Below the pieces are notes generated by a model. It was not told where the DNA came from. It saw nothing but the letters and a program-made list of their open reading frames with translations, and searched no databases. This document shows positions 5,245-48,274 of a stretch of 64,000 bases of DNA, in pieces. Source of the DNA: Octopus vulgaris (Eukaryota); contig OX597822.1 in assembly GCA_951406725.2 (NCBI GenBank), positions 6,634,001 through 6,698,000 on the forward strand, given 5' to 3'. A program made the position numbers and the translations under genes. Every line of letters begins with the position of its first letter. The first letter of the stretch is position 1.

Positions 5245-5708
5245 GAGAGATTAGTATCAATGAAGGTAGAGGAGAGAAAAGGTAATACAGTGAAGGAGAG
5301 GCAGCGAGAGTAACAGCCATGATTGAGAGAGTGAGGGAAAGTAATGGCCGTTTGAGAAAGAACGTAGAGTATATCTTCTGTTCACAACATATGACTGAGA
5401 AAGGCTGGGGCGAATAGTGTAAAAGACAGCCATTCAATTCGGTGTGACTATATGTGGATATGTGTGTATATGAAAAAGGGAGGTATGTGAATGTTTGTGT
5501 GTGTATGCATGTGCGCGTCTGTGTGTGTGGGGGAATGTGTGGCTGTGCGCGTGCGTAATGGAAACGTACAACTCTGAAGATAAAAACCGTGATCATTCCA
5601 AATTAGTTTGAGGATGTGTATATATGTGTGTGATTGGGAAATATTTGAATATGTTGTATCTGTGAGTGTTCCGAACTTCATTTTGTGTAAGGCCCATTTG
5701 TTATTTAA

Positions 5709-6800
5709 TTGTGTTTGTATATGTACATTCATTTGCCTTGCTCAGGGGCTTAATGTCTTCAGCTTCAGCCCTTGGCCCAGCTGGTTTCAGGTAGTATCGG
5801 AGAGAACTGGGCGAAACTACGTGGACATTCCAGACTCCGACTGAAGAAGCAATTAGCTGCGAATGATCCGTGTATCTTGTTTTGTCCTGTTTGCCGTTGT
5901 TGTGCTATCGTCCTTTTCCTGCTTGTTACGTTTTGACGATTTCCGCTTGTATTTTTTAAACTTTAACACTACATACAATTTGGTGTTTTTCTTTGTAAAA
6001 AAATGATACTCCTTGAATATTATGTACGACTCTCACCTACTTTTCCTCTTTTGCTCCTTTTCTTACCCCCCTTTCCCTCTCTGTCTTTCTCACTCTCCCA
6101 TTCTCGATTTTCTCCAAGTGTCCTTCCTCTTCCATCTCTCTTTTCTCATCGTCTCTCTTACCCCATCGTTCCTCTGTCCCTCTGATTTCATCTTCCCTCT
6201 CTCGCATTCTTTAATCCCTTTTCCCTTCCCTCTTATCTCTCAATCTCATTTGCTTTCCTTCCTCACCTCCCTTGTACCTTGTTTCTCTCTCTCTCTCTCT
6301 CTCTCACATTTTGTGATCCCTCCCTTTCATTATTTGGTCCCTATGATTTCTTTTTCTCTTTCATATTCCTTAGTCCCTCTGCCTTCAACGCCTCCTCTCC
6401 TCTACTACGTGATCGCTGTCAGGTTTATACATTGACGTTCTTTTTGCGGATCACCACCTTTGAGGTCAGTCGCATCTGTTCTTTTCTGTCTCGCCACCCG
6501 CTCAGTAAAATTTTTCCATTTCCTTTTTCCTTGCGCTACCTTACTACACTGTCTGATTGTCGAAAGTCTCTGTCTTGTGTTATTTTTGTTGTATAGCTGA
6601 ATGTCCATTGTATATATATAATTCTATTCCTTATGTTATGTTCGCCCGATAGTTGAAAGATCCTTTCTGCTTGTTCTTTCTTTGTGTTTGTATATGTAAA
6701 TTCATTTACCTTGCTCAGGGGCTTTAGCTTTGCTTTGCCCTATTTGCAGTTGTGCTATCGTCCTTTGCCCGCTTCTTATATTTTCACGATTTCTGTTTGT
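5709..6800 (+). repeat. Diverged direct repeat pair (5709-5950 and 6682-6800) separated by a pyrimidine-rich tract; the second copy is internally deleted
   Basis: Shared ttgtgtttgtatatgta.attcattt.ccttgctcaggggctt and ttgtgctatcgtccttt blocks. Confidence 0.75.
5738..5852 (+). ncRNA. Rearranged (non-circularly permuted) hammerhead-like motif, copy 1
   Basis: X ttgct / Y caggggct..agcccttg / II gcccag / III gtag-T-A / I tcggag / II' ctgggc GAAA III' ctac / I' ctccga CTGAAGA X' agcaa. Confidence 0.7.
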
Positions 6801-6824
6801 TATGGTTTTTACCTTTGGTTTATA

Positions 6825-7147
6825 TTTACTCTTTTACTCTTTTACTTGTTTCAGTCATTTGACTGTGGCTATGCTGGAGCACCGCCTTCAGTCGAGCAAA
6901 TCGACCCCGGGACCCACTCCTTGTAAGCCCAGTACTTATTCTATCGGTCTATTTTGCCGAACCGTTAAGTGACGGGGACGTAAACACACCAGCATCGGTT
7001 GTCAAGCAATGCTAGGGGGACAAACACACACACACACATATATATATATATACATATATACGACAGGATTCTTTCAGTTTCCGTCTACCAAATCCACTCA
7101 CAAGGCTTCGGTCGGCCCGAGGCTATAGCAGAAGACACTTGCCCAAG
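6825..7147 (-). mobile_element. SINE family A, 5'-truncated
   Basis: tttactcttttactcttttacttgtttcagtcatttgac... is the reverse complement of the family A tail and body. Confidence 0.92.
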
Positions 7148-14345: not shown

Positions 14346-14629
14346 CAACAATTGAGGGTAAAATTAATTAATCATTAATCAATTTCACCAAGTGTTCAGT
14401 ATGCAAAGGGACCATTTAAGGCGAATTCAAATTATTACATTATATAAAAGGGCTTAGTAAAATAAATTACTTTGCCGCATACTGAACTCATTAGAAATAG
14501 CAGCTAAAAAACTTTTTTAAAACTATTTCTAATACTTAAAGAAAATCTCTCTCATATATAGTGTTTGCTTAATTCAACTCACAAAAGTTTGGGGGTAAGG
14601 ACATTAAAAAATCAAATGCTAAGGTTATT

Positions 14630-14681
14630 TGAGAACGTACGTTTCAAGATTAGTCAAAACAACACTTCTATCTTCAGCTCA
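14630..14681 (-). ncRNA. Type I hammerhead motif, left arm
   Basis: Mirror copy of 14912-14963. Confidence 0.6.
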
Positions 14682-14911
14682 GAAACTCCTTGGTTTGGAT
14701 TTGGAAACACTGAAAGTAAGAACATACCCTTTCGAAGATCCGCTCGTAACTAAGCATAGCGTTTGATGATTTTAACCCACGCTGGTGGAAAGGGGAGAAC
14801 AGAAATTCTTCACTTGCTTATTTGGGTTTGTTGGCACTGTTAGTTACGAGCGGATCTTCGAAAGGGTATGTTCTTGCTTTCAGTGTTTCCAAATCCAAAC
14901 CAAGGAGTTTC

Positions 14912-14963
14912 TGAGCTGAAGATAGAAATGTTGTTTTGACTAATCTTGAAACGTACGTTCTCA
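14912..14963 (+). ncRNA. Type I hammerhead motif, right arm
   Basis: tgag CTGAAGA(14916-14922) t aga..tct t GAAA(14948-14951) cgtacg TT ctca; palindromic stem III. Confidence 0.6.
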
Positions 14964-15694
14964 AATAACCTTAGCATTTGATTTTTTAATGTCCTTACCC
15001 CCAAACTTTTGTGAGTTGAATTAAGCAAACACTATATATGAGAGAGATTTTCTTTAAGTATTAGAAATAGTTTTAAAAAAGTGTTTTAGCTGCTATTTCT
15101 AATGAGTTCAGTATGCGGCAAAGTAATTTATTTTACTAAGCCCTTTTATATAATATATATATATATATATATATAGCGGCGTGCGTACCCTCTCTCTTAT
15201 ATGTAGTACACATTTCTCTAAACTTGGTACGACTCTGTCTCTCTCTTCCCCCTCTCCTACTTTTTCTTCGCCTTCTTACTTTGCACGTCACTTTGCCCCT
15301 GTCTCTTTTTCACACTCTCTCTCCCTCTCTCCTCCTCCTCCTTAATTCCTTGTTCCTCTTTTTCTCTCTCTTCTCCCCTCCTTAATTCTTCTGTCCCCCT
15401 TTTCCTCTCTCTTCTCTTCACACTTGACTGACTGACCGACTGCTGTCCTTTTGGGGTCTAGCAGCCGTAGCGATAACATCTACATTTTTGTCTCTCTGCC
15501 CCAAGGCACATTCCTAACACGCCAGCTAATTTTAATCCGTCTAGTCGAGAGACGCCTGTTCGTGATGCCCTGTTATTGCTATTTTATTGTTATTATTATT
15601 ATTATTATTGTTTTATTATTAAATAAGTATTATTTTTGTATTCATATTCGTGTAACATCGTCCGTTTTTCCGTCCTTGTTTTGTATATATTCAA

Positions 15695-15823
15695 AGCTTT
15701 CTTCCAAGGAAACTAATGCGCTCAGCTTAGGTTTTCCTTTAGGCTGGCCAGACTGGAGCAATCTCAAGATTAATCAGCCGAAATTGCGAGGATGATCCGG
15801 TTCTTGACTGAAGATTGAAGGCT
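15695..15823 (+). ncRNA. Rearranged hammerhead-like motif, copy 2
   Basis: X agctttc / Y aaggaaact..ggttttcctt / II ggctgg / III gcaa-T-C / I tcaaga / II' tcagcc GAAA III' ttgc / I' tcttga CTGAAGA tt X' gaaggct; linkers of 10, 4 and 14 nt as in copy 1. Confidence 0.7.
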
Positions 15824-15919
15824 TCGAATGTCGCGTCCGTGTTTTTTGAATCGTCTCCTAAATGTTTTCCGTTCTTGTCACATTTTGTATTTTTATACAT
15901 ACATACATATGTGTTTTTG

Positions 15920-29730: not shown

Positions 29731-29782
29731 GTGTTTCGTGGTCTGCTACTACAACAGCTCCTTTATAGGATCCAGTTAGTTC

Positions 29783-29875
29783 AAGACATCATCAGGAGAA
29801 ACCATGTCCGGTTTCGGCCCCTACTCCTCTACCGTTTTGACGTGGCGGGCCCCCTCCCCCTTTCGGAGGTGTCTT
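29783..29875 (-). ncRNA. Rearranged hammerhead-like motif, copy 3
   Basis: Minus strand: X aagaca / Y cctcc-gaaa-ggggg / II ggccc / III cgg-T-A / I gaggag / II' gggcc GAAA III' ccg / I' tttctc CTGATGA X' tgtctt. Confidence 0.7.
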
Positions 29876-30343
29876 CAGCTCTGGTGTTGGGTGCATGTCT
29901 TCTGTCTTCTTCTTTCTTCTCTTCCTTGGCCTCTTCGATGTATCGTCAGTGAGTCTTAGCCGGTGACTGACTGACTTGTCAAAATTTTTCCCTTTAAATA
30001 CCTGCCGCTAGGCTCCAGCAGGCAGCCCCAGCAAGTTGTAACTTATTTTTGCCAGATGGAAGAACGTGAAATAAAAAGTCTTGCTCAAGGATTCAATCTG
30101 CAGCATTGTACTGACGAACTCACAGCCTAATGATCTTGAGCCGAATACCCTCACCAATCAGCCACGCGCCTTCACGGTTTGTTTATAAATTCTCTGGAGA
30201 AGGAGAAACATACTTCATCTACTTTTTTTCGAAACGAGTTTATGTTAATTTTTTTTTCTGCTTTGAACAAGGAACATTTCAGAAAACATTCTGAAGAGAG
30301 TAATGTTTATCGCCGGCAAAAAGTACGTGTGTATGTGCGTGTT

Positions 30344-42398: not shown

Positions 42399-44367
42399 GT
42401 TTGACTTTTGCTTTATATCTGTACAAGTTGGCTCCAAGTCTCACCCAGAGACCTCAAGAGACAACAGGTTAGAAGTTCTGTGCCATATATTTGGGGGTTT
42501 TTTTTTTTTGGTGTTGTACTAGTGAATGTCTAATACATAAAAAGAAAAAATAAACAAATAAAAAAAAAGTTTGTTTTAAACCTTGGGATTACATAGAGAG
42601 TATTTTGCGTAGGATATGAGCAGTTCCCATGAGCACTATCTTTTGAATTTCTGCCATTTTGGGGTTTCCTGGTATCTGAGTTAGGTAGCAATCAGTCCCT
42701 TTCGCTATCATTCCCAGGGCGCCTATGACAACAGGTATTGTTTTAGTCTTCAGCTTCCACATTTTGCTGATTTCTATTTCAAGATCTTTATATTTGCTCA
42801 GTTTTTGGTAGGTCTTGACAGATACGTTTATATCGATTGGGACAGTCATATCAATGAGGAGGCATGTTCTTTGTCTGAAGTCTTTCAATATGATGTCTGG
42901 CCTATTTGCATCTATCTTCCTGTCAGTTTGAATGGTGAAGTTCCAGAGGAGTGAGATGTGGTCATTTTCAAGCACAGGAGGTGGATTGTGTTCCCACCAG
43001 TTTTTTTCATGGGGCAAATCCAGGTTTTTGCAAATTACCCAGTGAATATATTGTGCTGCTCTATCATGCCTACTGAGGTACTCTGTAGGCGCTAGAAGAC
43101 TGCATTTGGAGACAACCTGGTCAATGGTTTCATTTTGTTGTCGGCATACACGACATGTTGGGCTACTGCCGTTCTTACTGCCGTTCTGGCCTGGTAGTTT
43201 CTTGTTGGTAGGCATTGCTTGCTATGATAAACCCCTCTGTTTCAGATTTTAAGCCAGAGGCCACTAGCCATTGATGGGTCAGGGCTTTGTCGATATCTGC
43301 ATTATTCGCTCTCTTTGGGTATTTGCCATAGAGAGGTTTTTCTTGTCATTTATTATTCAGAATATCTAAGGCCGCAGTTTTGGCACGGGTTTTCATGCGC
43401 CTAGCTTTTTCTGTGTTTGTTTCTTTTATGTCTATCTCTAATTCCGAAATTGGTTGTATTCGGAATTCACTTAGATATTCCTTTTCCTGTTTTGTGACTG
43501 AGTATGATGCTTTCTTGTTTTCATGTTTTGAGACAAGTTTTAACATCCAGTCCTCAGAGTTTTTCAGGTAGGTGTCTAGGCAAATTGTAGCAATCTTCAT
43601 TGTTATCGCCAGTTGCAAAAGACCACGGCCTCCTTCTTTTCTTGGCAGATAGAGTCGTTCTGTATCTGCCTTAGGGTGGTGCATTCTATGTATTGTCAAC
43701 AGTTTCCTTATTTTTCTGTCGAGCTGACATATTTCAGTAATTGACCAGTTAACAATATTGAAACTGTAAGTCACGACTGGTATGGCTAATGCATTGATCG
43801 CTTCGATCCTGTTTCTTGCATTCAGCTCTGTCTTGAGTATTGCTCTCACTCTTCGATAGCATTCTCTCCTGATCCTTTCCTTCATCTCTGAATGCTTTAT
43901 TCCGTTCCCTTCAATTACCCCTGGGTACTTGTAGCTCTCCGCTGGGTCTAGTTCTTTTATGACATTCTGCTGGTCAAGGTTAACGTTAGATGTTTCTGTC
44001 ATATTTCCTTTGATAAAGGTAGCCTTTGCACATTTATTGAGGCCGAATTGCATTCTGATGTCGTCACTGAACTGTTTGACTATCGCTAGTAAGCCCTTGA
44101 GTTGTTGGTCAATTTTTGCAAAAGCTTTAAATCATCCATGTAAATGAGATGATTTATATTTTTATCAAACATTTTATACCCGTACTGCGCGTCATTGAGC
44201 AGCTTTGAGAGAGGTATTAAGGATAAACAAAAGAGAAGTGGTGACAGTGAGTCACCCTGGAAAATGCCACACGAAATTTTTACATCACCAGCATTTAGGG
44301 ATTCATTGTCACTGGTCAGAGTTAGCGTGGTTCTCCATGATCTCATACCTACAGTCAAGAAGTTTCT
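42397..44367 (-). mobile_element. 5'-truncated R4/Dong-type non-LTR retrotransposon (RT, CCHC, restriction-like endonuclease), frameshifted
   Basis: GIFQGDSLSPLLF, YMDDLKL, FGLNKC, LYLPRKEGGRGL, CRVC..ET..C, RHD, RPDI..ID..P, K..KY.DL, LMGTAHILRKIL*; 3' end in (TAA)n at 42343-42396. Confidence 0.93.
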
Positions 44368-44469
44368 GTTATTATTATTATTATTATTATTATCATTAGT
44401 GTTGTTGTTGTTGTTGTTGTTCAGTGATCTGAACAACAACAACAACAACAACAACAACAATAATAATGA

Positions 44470-44628
44470 TAATAACATAGAAAAATACCTTAGGAATGAG
44501 GACGCAGGTTCGAAATTTCTCCAAAACACATGAAGAAGCCTGGAGGGTATATCAGCCGAAACGTTGAGTTAACAACAAACAAGATGAGGACAAATATCGT
44601 CGAATGTAAATAATGTAAATAATGTAAA
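44470..44628 (+). mobile_element. Penelope-like terminal repeat, inverted partner; HHR core mutated (aTGAAGA)
   Basis: ccttaggaatgag.acgcaggttcgaaattt..tgaagaagcctggagggtatatcagccgaaacgttgagtt..cgaatgtaaataatgtaaataatgta. Confidence 0.75.
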
Positions 44629-46289: not shown

Positions 46290-47690
46290 ATGTACTACGG
46301 TCACAACTGTTCACTAACAGTGAACTAAGGTATACACCTCTTATTTTTCGAGCATTTTCCGGAGTGTTCGAGAGGTTCCGAGCAGTCCTGTTTTCTGAAA
46401 GTGCTCTACCCTTATTGCAGTCCCTATTTGTTCCATGTACTTCTCGAGATTTTTCTCACTGATCCCAAGGCTCCCACAATTATCATAAATTCTCACAGGA
46501 TCTTTGCGTTATCATTTTCGATAATGCCTTCGGATTTGTGGTCGTACCAATTTTTTCCTCTGCCAAGTCCATACATGTTGCAAAATGTCCAATGGTCAAG
46601 CCTTGCTATATTGTCGTGGAGTCTCTTATATTCCTTCTGGGCTAGTGGCGTATATTGGTTGATAATATGCCATTCGGTTTCACCATTTTTCCCACAGATT
46701 CTGCACTTATCACTTTCTGATTTGTTGTCTACTCTGTATTTTATGTAGTTTGCTCTTAGTGCTTGCACTTGGGCAGCAGCGATTAGAGCCTCAGTTTCCG
46801 GTTTTAAATCAATTTAATCATCCACAGGCATCTCTTTACTCTGTCTGTCTTATCTTCAACATTCCCATGAAATTGTCCATGCATTCTTTTCTTTACCCAT
46901 CTATTTTCAGTTTCAATCGTTTTCAGTTGTTTGTGCTGTGATTTATCTTTGCAGTCTTTCATCCTCCTCAAGTCTGAAACTTCTAACTTCTAATAATAGC
47001 AGTTTTGTGGTATGTTTTACATACCATGCGACGTTGTTTTCTTCTGCTTTAATACTGTGTTCGCATCCAATAAGTCCTCTTCCCCATCTTAGTTTTGGTA
47101 CATATAGTTTCTCCGTGTCACTTTTTGGGTGAAGTGTCCCATATCTCGTTAGCAACTTCCTTGTTTTTCTGTCTAAGCTGTTTAGTTCCCCAACTGTCCA
47201 TGCGATTACCCCTGTTCCATATCTAAGGATGAAACTGCCCAGGTGTCGATAGCTTCAAACTTATTCCGTCCGTTTAATTTCGACTTAAGGATCAGTCTCA
47301 GTCTGCACAATTATTCCACCTTCAATTTTTCTCTCTTTCTTTCTCCATCAATTAGTCCATTTCCGAAATCCCCAAGTACTTATAGCCCGTCTCTTCTATC
47401 TGCTTCATAACCTCTCCCGACGGTATCGATAGTCCGTCCATACATTTGACTTTGCCTCTTTTCAAGACTAACACACCACACTTTCTCAGTTCCAACTCCA
47501 TTCTGATATCAGCACTGAAAGTATACACCTTTTCAACGAAGGAACTGACTTGGGCTTCATCTTTACCATAAAGTTTGAGATCAACAATGAATAACACCCG
47601 GCTGACATTTCGTTGGTGGCTTTTGAATACACAACCAGCTTTTGCTTTCCTCGTGATCTGTGTTAGTGGTATCAAGCACACTACAAAGAT
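46290..47690 (-). mobile_element. Decayed R4/Dong-type LINE
   Basis: LFIVDLKLYG, ELRKCGVL, YKYLGI, LHPKSDTEKLYVP..GRGL, CRICGKNGETEWHII, YKRLHDNIA, QKTGLLGTSRTLRKML. Confidence 0.88.
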
Positions 47691-48274
47691 CAGTGGGAAC
47701 AGGCAGTTACTTTTCCTCCTTTTGAAGTCTCTAAATACAGTTTTGTCTACCAGTTGATCCTTGGACCTCTACACTTACGCTTGCTCATGTGGCAGGACTC
47801 CATTTTTTCTAAATGTTTGTAGATTGACTCTGCGCGTATTCCTGTCAATAATTTCTACATAAGTGGCGGACAGGATATCGACCTGTAATTGTCTACCGTA
47901 TTGAATTGTGTATTGTCTATCGTATTGAATTGTGGTATTCATAGGACGCGGACTGTGTCCAGCAGTGTCATACCCTGGGCTGTGTAGCGTAAGAAATTTT
48001 GTTATGTATGTGAACTTCTTTATATGTATTTCCTCTTGCCTACTTCTTCCATTTTAATATGAACTGAATTTACCTTTATATCTGCATCCTGACAGATTCC
48101 CTACACAATTTCCAGCAATATTGTGGTCAGGTGGGGGCCCAGTCTCGGTCAGACTACATATCCTTCCTTCAAGCTTTCCCTAATTGCCATGTGACAGGCT
48201 TGATCCCCATTTTAGACTTGATAGCCATGATCCAGTATTGAGGTAGACCCCTTCCTATTTGGTCAAGACATAAT

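Follow-up and report, generated by a model that had tools for sequence, protein, structure and literature searches.

The 64,000 nucleotides of Octopus vulgaris DNA analysed here (assembly GCA_951406725.2, contig OX597822.1, positions 6,634,001 to 6,698,000 of the forward strand; hereafter the window) contain two diverged repeats in which the pieces of a hammerhead ribozyme can be picked out, in a rearranged order and with the core interrupted. The question raised by this locus is whether such an arrangement is a self-cutting RNA, a fold conserved for some other role, or an accidental set of pairings in repetitive DNA. In the hammerhead mechanism G12 acts as the base and the 2'-OH of G8 as the acid, with A9 pairing with G12 under the G10.1-C11.1 pair (PMC11300833, in the parts available to us). 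The alignments of known hammerheads in the accessible parts of Eckert et al. 2023 (PMC10085705) never place more than 1-2 nt between CUGAnGA and the stems, which counts against a split core, and a viroid hammerhead tolerates one extra base between A9 and G10.1 (PMC3705267).

We put at about three in four the probability that the copy at 15689-15829 is a worn representative of a predicted hammerhead with reordered strands and a core open between A9 and G10.1, that the motif occurs once in each unit of a non-coding repeat likely copied by a Penelope-type enzyme, and that intact copies likely cut after the base matching C15763. As judged from sequence, the split core appears to be a real and conserved new variant of the hammerhead.

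Anatomy of the predicted split core

The repeat that carries this copy belongs to a family termed F2, and its elements, together with the other copies in the window, are the following (window positions):

15175..15905, plus strand: F2 unit, a non-coding, (TA)n-flanked, Penelope-like non-autonomous repeat, delimited by homology
15689..15703, plus strand: 5' strand of helix X (13 bp, 15689-15701), then UU opposite UU at the junction
15704..15741, plus strand: hairpin Y, with a 10-nt loop, adjoining stem II in the F2 family
15742..15747, plus strand: 5' strand of stem II, with G10.1 at 15742, upstream of the cleavage block
15748..15757, plus strand: 10-nt linker, comprising the 5' strand of helix Z (15748-15755) and the GA of a predicted kink-turn (15756-15757)
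15758..15763, plus strand: 5' strand of stem III (15758-15761), U16.1 and C17, with the predicted cut 3' of C15763
15764..15773, plus strand: 5' strand of stem I (15764-15769), then a 4-nt linker
15774..15787, plus strand: 3' strand of stem II, G12-A13-A14-A15.1 (15780-15783), 3' strand of stem III
15788..15801, plus strand: 14-nt linker, comprising a 3-nt bulge, the GA at 15791-15792 of the predicted kink-turn and the 3' strand of helix Z (15793-15800)
15802..15814, plus strand: 3' strand of stem I, then the C3-A9 core CUGAAGA (15808-15814)
15815..15829, plus strand: UU, then the 3' strand of helix X (15817-15829)
5726..5865, plus strand: copy 1, family F1, with the layout and linker lengths of copy 2 and different stem sequences
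29778..29880, minus strand: third copy, family F3, with the same layout, shorter linkers, a helix Z of 7 bp and no kink-turn

All 13 segments named in the original prediction are present at these coordinates, base for base, and the linkers of 10, 4 and 14 nt equal those of copy 1; the F3 copy had been missed. Two helices proved to be larger than first described: X, given as 7 bp, forms 13 bp (15689-15701 with 15817-15829) above two U.U pairs, and Y extends over 15704-15741, so as to adjoin stem II in the F2 family. The sequence allows the small gga..tcc hairpin proposed within the 14-nt linker (3 bp, -1.2 kcal/mol). This pairing competes with a sixth helix, Z, between the 10-nt and 14-nt linkers, and is probably incorrect. 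The energy of helix Z is -3.8 kcal/mol in another F2 copy (L005) and -1.2 in the window copy, and Z together with a likely kink-turn probably accounts for the linkers better than does the hairpin.

The catalytic core has the standard hammerhead composition, with C3-U4-G5-A6-N7-G8-A9 after stem I, G12-A13-A14, an A15.1-U16.1 pair and H17 in the triplet AUC. Stems I, II and III, of 6, 6 and 4 bp, close on the core with G10.1-C11.1; 94-98% of their cells are paired, with double-sided changes, and each stem crosses the other two. The departure from all contiguous hammerheads lies at A9, which is not followed within 1-2 nt by stem II: the 5' strand of that stem is situated upstream, and X and Y intervene. 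In the F2 anatomy the path from A9 through X and Y to G10.1 passes over only 0-2 unpaired bases per step, and X/Y and stem II/core would form a four-way junction. Contact between stems I and II may be provided by the 4-nt linker and the predicted helix Z, the latter being 7 bp in F3 and having 70% of its cells paired in F1 and F2.

A kink-turn consists of a helix, a 3-nt bulge and then tandem G.A/A.G pairs. The GA dinucleotides of this pattern are present in F2 in 92/92 copies on the 5' side and 88/92 on the 3' side, and in F1 in 19/30 and 26/30 copies, with F4 fitting by eye; the pattern is absent from the representatives of F3 and F5-F8. A GA/3-nt bulge/GA between stem III and Z thus fits a predicted kink-turn in F2, F1 and F4.

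The F2 anatomy was read from 92 copies; copies of the family have a median divergence of 4.5% from the column majority. CUGAAGA is kept in 89 of the 92 (a count biased upward because the copies were chosen by a pattern spanning the core), GAAA in 88 and UC in all 92, and the majority sequence of the family retains the core and every helix, so that the loss of pairings or core nucleotides in the consensus, which would have told against the original prediction, is not seen. Most of the common variants keep or improve pairs (in Z, U-G in 55 and C-G in 36 copies; in X, U-G in 69 and C-G in 19; again in Z, A.C in 72 and G-C in 13), and some break pairs of Y (16/92 and 25/92 at two columns, in part through alignment shift). 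The window copy differs from the majority at nine positions, and pairs are broken at four of these, namely 15740 and 15741 at the base of Y, A15693 in X and C15753 in Z. The first two (T15740, A15741) abolish both Y/stem II junction pairs, which are kept in 82/92 and 83/92 copies. Its core and stems I-III are undamaged. Given the loss of two Y junction pairs, one X pair and one Z pair, the odds are about even that this worn copy is inactive.

Maintenance of the fold

A descriptor that specified only stems I and III and the core elements UH, GAAA and CUGAnGA, arranged S-G-C (the cleavage block, then the blocks with GAAA and with CUGAnGA), and left out stem II, X and Y, gave three matches in the window, namely copy 1, copy 2 and the minus-strand F3 copy. 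Over 264 kb it gave four core matches, all with the upstream stem-II partner and three with X and Y as well. The reversed 264 kb and each of three shuffles gave 0 matches, and a relaxed descriptor applied to 360 kb gave one match, complete, with 0 in the controls. A stem II strand directly after the core was present in 0/4 of the core matches in 264 kb and in 3/67 in the search loci.

The claim that the stems differ between the copies and nevertheless pair was borne out: between F1 and F2, 15 of 31 pairs are changed on both sides, where slid controls gave 3-6, and the share of cells that pair is 88%, where they gave 21-40% (15 copies of each family). Double-sided changes occur in all five helices counted. 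The comparison is of two lineages only, and in a within-column shuffle the number of changed pairs is not significant (50/500).

Two tests addressed X, Y and stem II across families. In a contiguous-helix test, shuffles equalled F1, F5, F6 and F7 in 0/500 cases, F3 in 1/500, F2b in 21/500 and F4 in 112/500; the X/Y/II arrangement of the window copy alone is not significant (38/500). In a junction energy test, X|Y|II was compared with 200 shuffles of upstream DNA for each of 12 natural copies, and eight of the 12 stood at 0/200 (F2 L005, F2b, F3 twice, F5, F6, F7 and F8), while the window copy, both F1 copies tried and the F4 copy failed. Hence seven of nine families are significant by junction energy; F1 is so by contiguous helices, and F4, with its short X, by neither test. 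A ninth descriptor match (L074) failed the architecture test and was not counted as a family, and a search for new families that excluded F1/F2 letters recovered only mutated F1/F2 copies.

Knot-free folding and Rfam models are unable to score three mutually crossing stems. Knot-free folding of the window copy was uninformative (z = -0.91), and in a single F2 family copy the lowest-energy knot-free fold already holds X, Y and II. Rfam gave no hammerhead or other family above threshold among the 150 of 216 window matches listed, and a local Rfam search of the motif gave no hammerhead and only two weak snoRNA matches.

Other families and the Naiad elements

The conservation of the rearranged hammerhead between diverged repeat families, proposed from two copies, extends to nine families in the genome and, by eye, to published tails of Naiad elements. 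Five more families with the fold were met by chance in flanks or neighbouring DNA (L131, L069, L012, L006, L187, L059).

F3, with 1057 exact copies of a 29-mer (loci including L093, L096, L103, L113 and L142), belongs to a non-LTR retrotransposon in which a zinc knuckle and a motif of restriction-like nucleases can be recognized by eye, with an RVT_1 match at E=7e-5, below the cut-off. The fold lies in the 3' UTR of this element and is therefore not restricted to Penelope-like elements. Its G-rich segment from the Y loop to Z, which holds the 5' strand of stem II, occurs in 56 forms in 58 copies between conserved flanks (L341-L370, L385-L424), and this may reflect instability of G-runs or selection for non-cutting templates. 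Copy 1 (F1) heads a partial tandem at 5697-6830, made up of the motif, a body of ~750 nt and a second terminal repeat that lacks the ribozyme core through a deletion near 6724-6730. Elsewhere in the window, broken LINE-like RT and nuclease frames lie at 42589-44568 and 46329-47768 (minus strand), interrupted by (AAT)n runs.

Naiads were reported to lack canonical hammerheads, with ten 'core' and eight 'half core' cases, the octopus Naiad being a half core (Craig et al. 2021, PMC8557442, as far as the available parts go). We parsed by eye the tails in part of the 54 consensus sequences of that study. The split layout was recognized in Beroe, three Acropora species, two other cnidarian entries, one arthropod and two octopus entries, that is, in a set that includes a ctenophore, corals, a box jellyfish, an arthropod and octopus, from four phyla. 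Nematode and spider tails (Craig 2021 File S5) read by eye as an unsplit type CSG with a I-II helix, and the other entries looked at parsed as neither form. When the genome was searched with a short pattern taken from the tail of the octopus Naiad, 255 exact matches were obtained, against 0 for the control; this is family F4, and at two of its 30 loci examined the sequence upstream reaches into the end of an RT frame.

The carrier repeat

The suggestion of a Penelope-like terminal repeat as the carrier stands in part. F2 has (TA)n targets, partial tandems and an optional tail of 30-40 nt (L009, L019), and the spacing of cores in tandem is 682-1042 nt (median 744, n=21), with one hammerhead motif per non-coding unit, as in non-LTR retrozymes. 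None of its copies could be tied to an RT/GIY-YIG frame. The longest stop-free stretch on its plus strand is 119 aa, a Naiad ORF (N-terminal GIY-YIG, C-terminal RT) was absent from the unit and from the common flanks of 60 F2 loci, no flank common to the copies lengthens the unit, and the F2 body as a query brought up no long version. A first look at the 2.8 Gb genome gave 3071 candidates, and exact matches to one 28-mer set the copy number at a minimum of 2012. With Penelope-like hallmarks of the kind listed by Craig et al., F2 is likely a non-autonomous passenger copied by a Penelope-type enzyme; lacking an ORF and any sequence link to Naiad beyond the fold, it is at most that.

Possible enzyme partners were sought among GIY-YIG loci. 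In the best matches translated, the nuclease is C-terminal, with one intact 781-aa RT + GIY-YIG frame; in the set of 50 loci, the sole split-core match was an opposite-strand neighbour (L187), and only a 45-nt tail piece was shared with F2. The intact frame lies at L231:1245-3587 and represents a Penelope-like family of many copies; in the tails of its relatives L180 and L190 we recognized by eye a degenerate minimal hammerhead of the canonical, not the split, form. In a single case (L445:1495-2100) a short Naiad (F4) 3' end is fused directly to a diverged F2-like body, a joint that would be either a chance insertion or a template switch pointing to the Naiad enzyme as the partner of F2. Directly upstream of the F2 unit in the window lies a 720-nt self-inverted repeat of 91% identity (14436-15157), with inverted pieces from 14000, which is probably a separate fold-back element.

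Contigs from four presumed-RNA runs span the motif, with a rise in summed depth near 15756-15790; nothing is drawn from this depth because contigs show neither ends nor levels, related subfamilies match better there, and a DNA-run control was lacking.

5' ends of genomic copies at the predicted cut

If the RNA is cut after C15763, copies of the 3' product should begin at or just after 15764. The main sample comprised 94 of the first 100 listed among 2012 places, chosen only by the 3' 28-mer at 15803-15830. Thirty-eight of these copies reach past 15645, 21 start within 15646-15763, 34 within 15764-15797 and one later. The start rate is thus 21 per 5594 copy-nt upstream of the cut (3.8 per 1000) against 34 per 2767 downstream (12.3), and the starts per 6 nt from 15760 number 3, 10, 11, 5, 2, 4 and 1. 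The maximum-likelihood change point falls exactly at 15764, and 2/2000 simulations score as high under a null of constant rate. The rise holds both for starts at AT sites (4.7 to 20.0) and for non-AT sites (3.3 to 8.3), and reappears in a second sample of 29 F2 copies drawn by another pattern (7/1650 against 9/332, p=4e-4).

Most F2 starts lie 2-20 nt downstream of the cut, many joining (TA)n at AT bases, and in the main sample only three of the 63 dated starts around the site are within 1-3 nt of it (two at 15764, one at 15761). In F3, 0/71 copies begin downstream of the cut, and in the F4 Naiad family (50 of 168 copies) the counts are 4/1416 and 8/1698 (p=0.87); neither shows a rise. F1, with 3/509 and 7/849 from 14 copies, is too small. 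F3 starts seem to cluster at -78 only because the reference copy differs in the length of a repeat. As F3 and F4 show no rise and F1 has too few copies, the footprint is a property of F2 in these data and not a general proof of cutting. It fits a passenger copied in trans from cut RNA. Separately, three F2 copies (L002, L259, L323) contain inverted pieces that are joined within the ribozyme, at 11-35 nt past the predicted cut.

A model of cleavage and copying, and the alternatives

In the model that we propose, A9 would run into X, X would stack on Y, and Y would deliver G10.1, so that X clamps both ends of the motif and X/Y stacking joins A9 and G10.1 without a covalent bond. Z would link stems I and II at their far ends, in the manner of the fourth helix required by type-SGC hammerheads, and the kink-turn would bend stem III into Z. 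The SGC and CSG orders cleave in vitro at 0.004-0.19 per min, and SGC-3 requires the I-II helix (PMC10085705, in the parts available). Tandem transcripts would be partly cut, the partial nature of cutting being suggested by the 59/94 copies that extend upstream of the cut. Reverse transcription would begin near the 3' end of the unit (about 15900); run-off at the cut 5' end would yield copies starting 0-30 nt past the cut, and read-through of uncut or rejoined RNA the 59 that reach further upstream. After the cut, X, II, Z and III would still hold both ends, and four helices joining the products would favour rejoining and circles, both of which have been proposed for Penelope tandems (PMC4209133).

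Of the competing explanations, we regard as unlikely, yet as the most serious, that the fold is conserved and does not cut itself, being instead a binding or pausing structure for the retroelement enzyme or one cut with the help of a protein, and that the 5' ends stem from RT stalling or a nuclease. The missing 5'-end edge in F3 and F4 would suit such a fold, as would the position of most F2 starts, a few nt beyond the cut, and the joining of many to (TA)n at AT bases. A precedent exists in the Anolis Penelope hammerhead, which in vitro cut only in the presence of its protein and was not required for insertion, the uncut RNA being the main template and no RNA ends being found at the cut (PMC11167929). 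Against it, every catalytic nucleotide is kept across nine families while the stems change, the change point sits on the predicted base with a rise at non-AT starts also, and a stall would be expected at the 3' entry near 15829 rather than after most of the fold had been copied. Far less probable is an unsplit core, in which GGCU in the 3' strand of X (15820-15823) pairs with the 3' strand of stem II to give a type SGC interrupted by 5 extra nt behind A9. X, Y and the upstream strand would then belong to an alternative fold without activity. Such a 4-bp pairing is possible in F2, and type SGC is experimentally proven (PMC10085705, in the parts available); the pairing is, however, absent in F1 and other families, as the scarcity of a stem II strand after the core attests, its GGCU is tied up in the 13 bp of helix X (-18.2 kcal/mol in L005), and the upstream strand makes 6 bp and covaries with its partner.

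We give still less credence to an active form assembled between neighbouring tandem units or across a circle join (the 3' strand of X with the 5' strand of the next X), with the single copy silent, as in dimeric Penelope hammerheads. It would be in keeping with the partial tandems of F2, ~740 nt apart, and with the proposal that metazoan Penelope hammerheads act as dimers (PMC4209133), but all partners lie within 141 nt, stem III has its full 4-5 bp, the knot-free fold of a single family copy already has X, Y and II, and the chemistry would still be that of a split core. The least credible of all is that the pairings are chance matches, made by eye in a low-complexity repeat. The weak scores of the window copy on its own (z = -0.91; 38/500) and the want of a hammerhead match in Rfam might be cited for this; it is refuted by controls, reversed and shuffled DNA giving 0 matches and seven families passing the energy test at 0/200, while Naiad tails from four phyla show the same layout by eye (in the available entries) and three mutually crossing stems are in any case beyond the reach of knot-free folding and Rfam models.

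Returning to the predicted split hammerhead, we lean, with less assurance than for the window copy and its family, towards a broader proposal: that it is a seventh natural topology, derived from type CSG by circular permutation, in which the core is opened at a bond taken to be unbreakable and a four-way junction closes it again, some lineages having a kink-turn as well; that it supplies the ribozyme missing from the Naiad clade, in at least four animal phyla, and was passed on to non-coding passengers and a LINE; and that it cuts in the germline, the cut site being recorded in the 5' ends of copies. If true, there would be a topology beyond the six considered possible by Eckert et al. 2023, and the A9-G10.1 bond would be replaceable by a helical junction. 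Non-circularly permuted ribozymes would move from metatranscriptome contigs to animal genomes, in thousands of copies, and the apparent lack of hammerheads in Naiads would be explained, restoring the link between Penelope-like elements and self-cleavage. The 5'-end edge would be a genomic footprint of cleavage, which RNA data did not give for another Penelope element (PMC11167929), and descriptor searches that require a contiguous core will have missed the split-core class.

Relationship to known hammerheads and retroelements

The literature searched, which covered few subscription papers, brought up no account of a hammerhead with a split core or of one in Naiads; the supplementary data of Eckert 2023 and Li 2026 could bear on this. 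The comparisons that follow refer to the available parts of each source. The nearest relatives in block order are found in Eckert et al. 2023 (PMC10085705). Type SGC (HRIMA-1 and variants) shares with our motif 1) the order cleavage block, GAAA block, CUGAnGA; 2) a short linker between stems I and II (about 3 nt in SGC, 4 here) and a helix joining the other sides of these stems (the predicted Z here); and 3) three mutually crossing stems. In SGC, the stem II strand directly follows A9, whereas here it is upstream, with X and Y inserted, so that the order S, G, CUGAnGA is found without a contiguous block C. SGC is also known from metatranscriptomes rather than genomes of known organisms, and its cutting is proven, whereas here it is predicted from sequence.

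Type CSG, known from two metagenomic sequences that both cleave (PMC10085705), has the same cyclic block order, and the 5' strand of stem II, a linker and the cleavage block follow in the same succession. The block C of CSG is intact, 5' and without X or Y, whereas here CUGAAGA lies 3' of both other blocks. The split form might thus be read as a CSG closed from stem III to Z and reopened between A9 and G10.1. As block C is not contiguous, the motif is outside all six orders set out in the accessible parts of Eckert et al. 2023.

Among retroelements, F2 resembles the Naiads (PMC8557442) in its (TA)n targets, partial tandems and optional short tail, and differs in having no ORF and no sequence link beyond the common fold. 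The animal non-LTR retrozymes (Li, Clavereau and Pollet 2026, 10.64898/2026.07.22.740005) are likewise non-coding and tandem, with one hammerhead per unit and a proposed Penelope-like origin. Unlike these, F2 has the split permuted form and a unit of ~740 nt. The retrozymes reportedly carry type I hammerheads in shorter monomers. Finally, the pseudoknot-containing hammerhead of Zhan et al. 2024 (PMC11300833) also sets a standard core in a pseudoknotted frame with an extra helix, but in it A9 is joined to G10.1 and the blocks follow the standard order.
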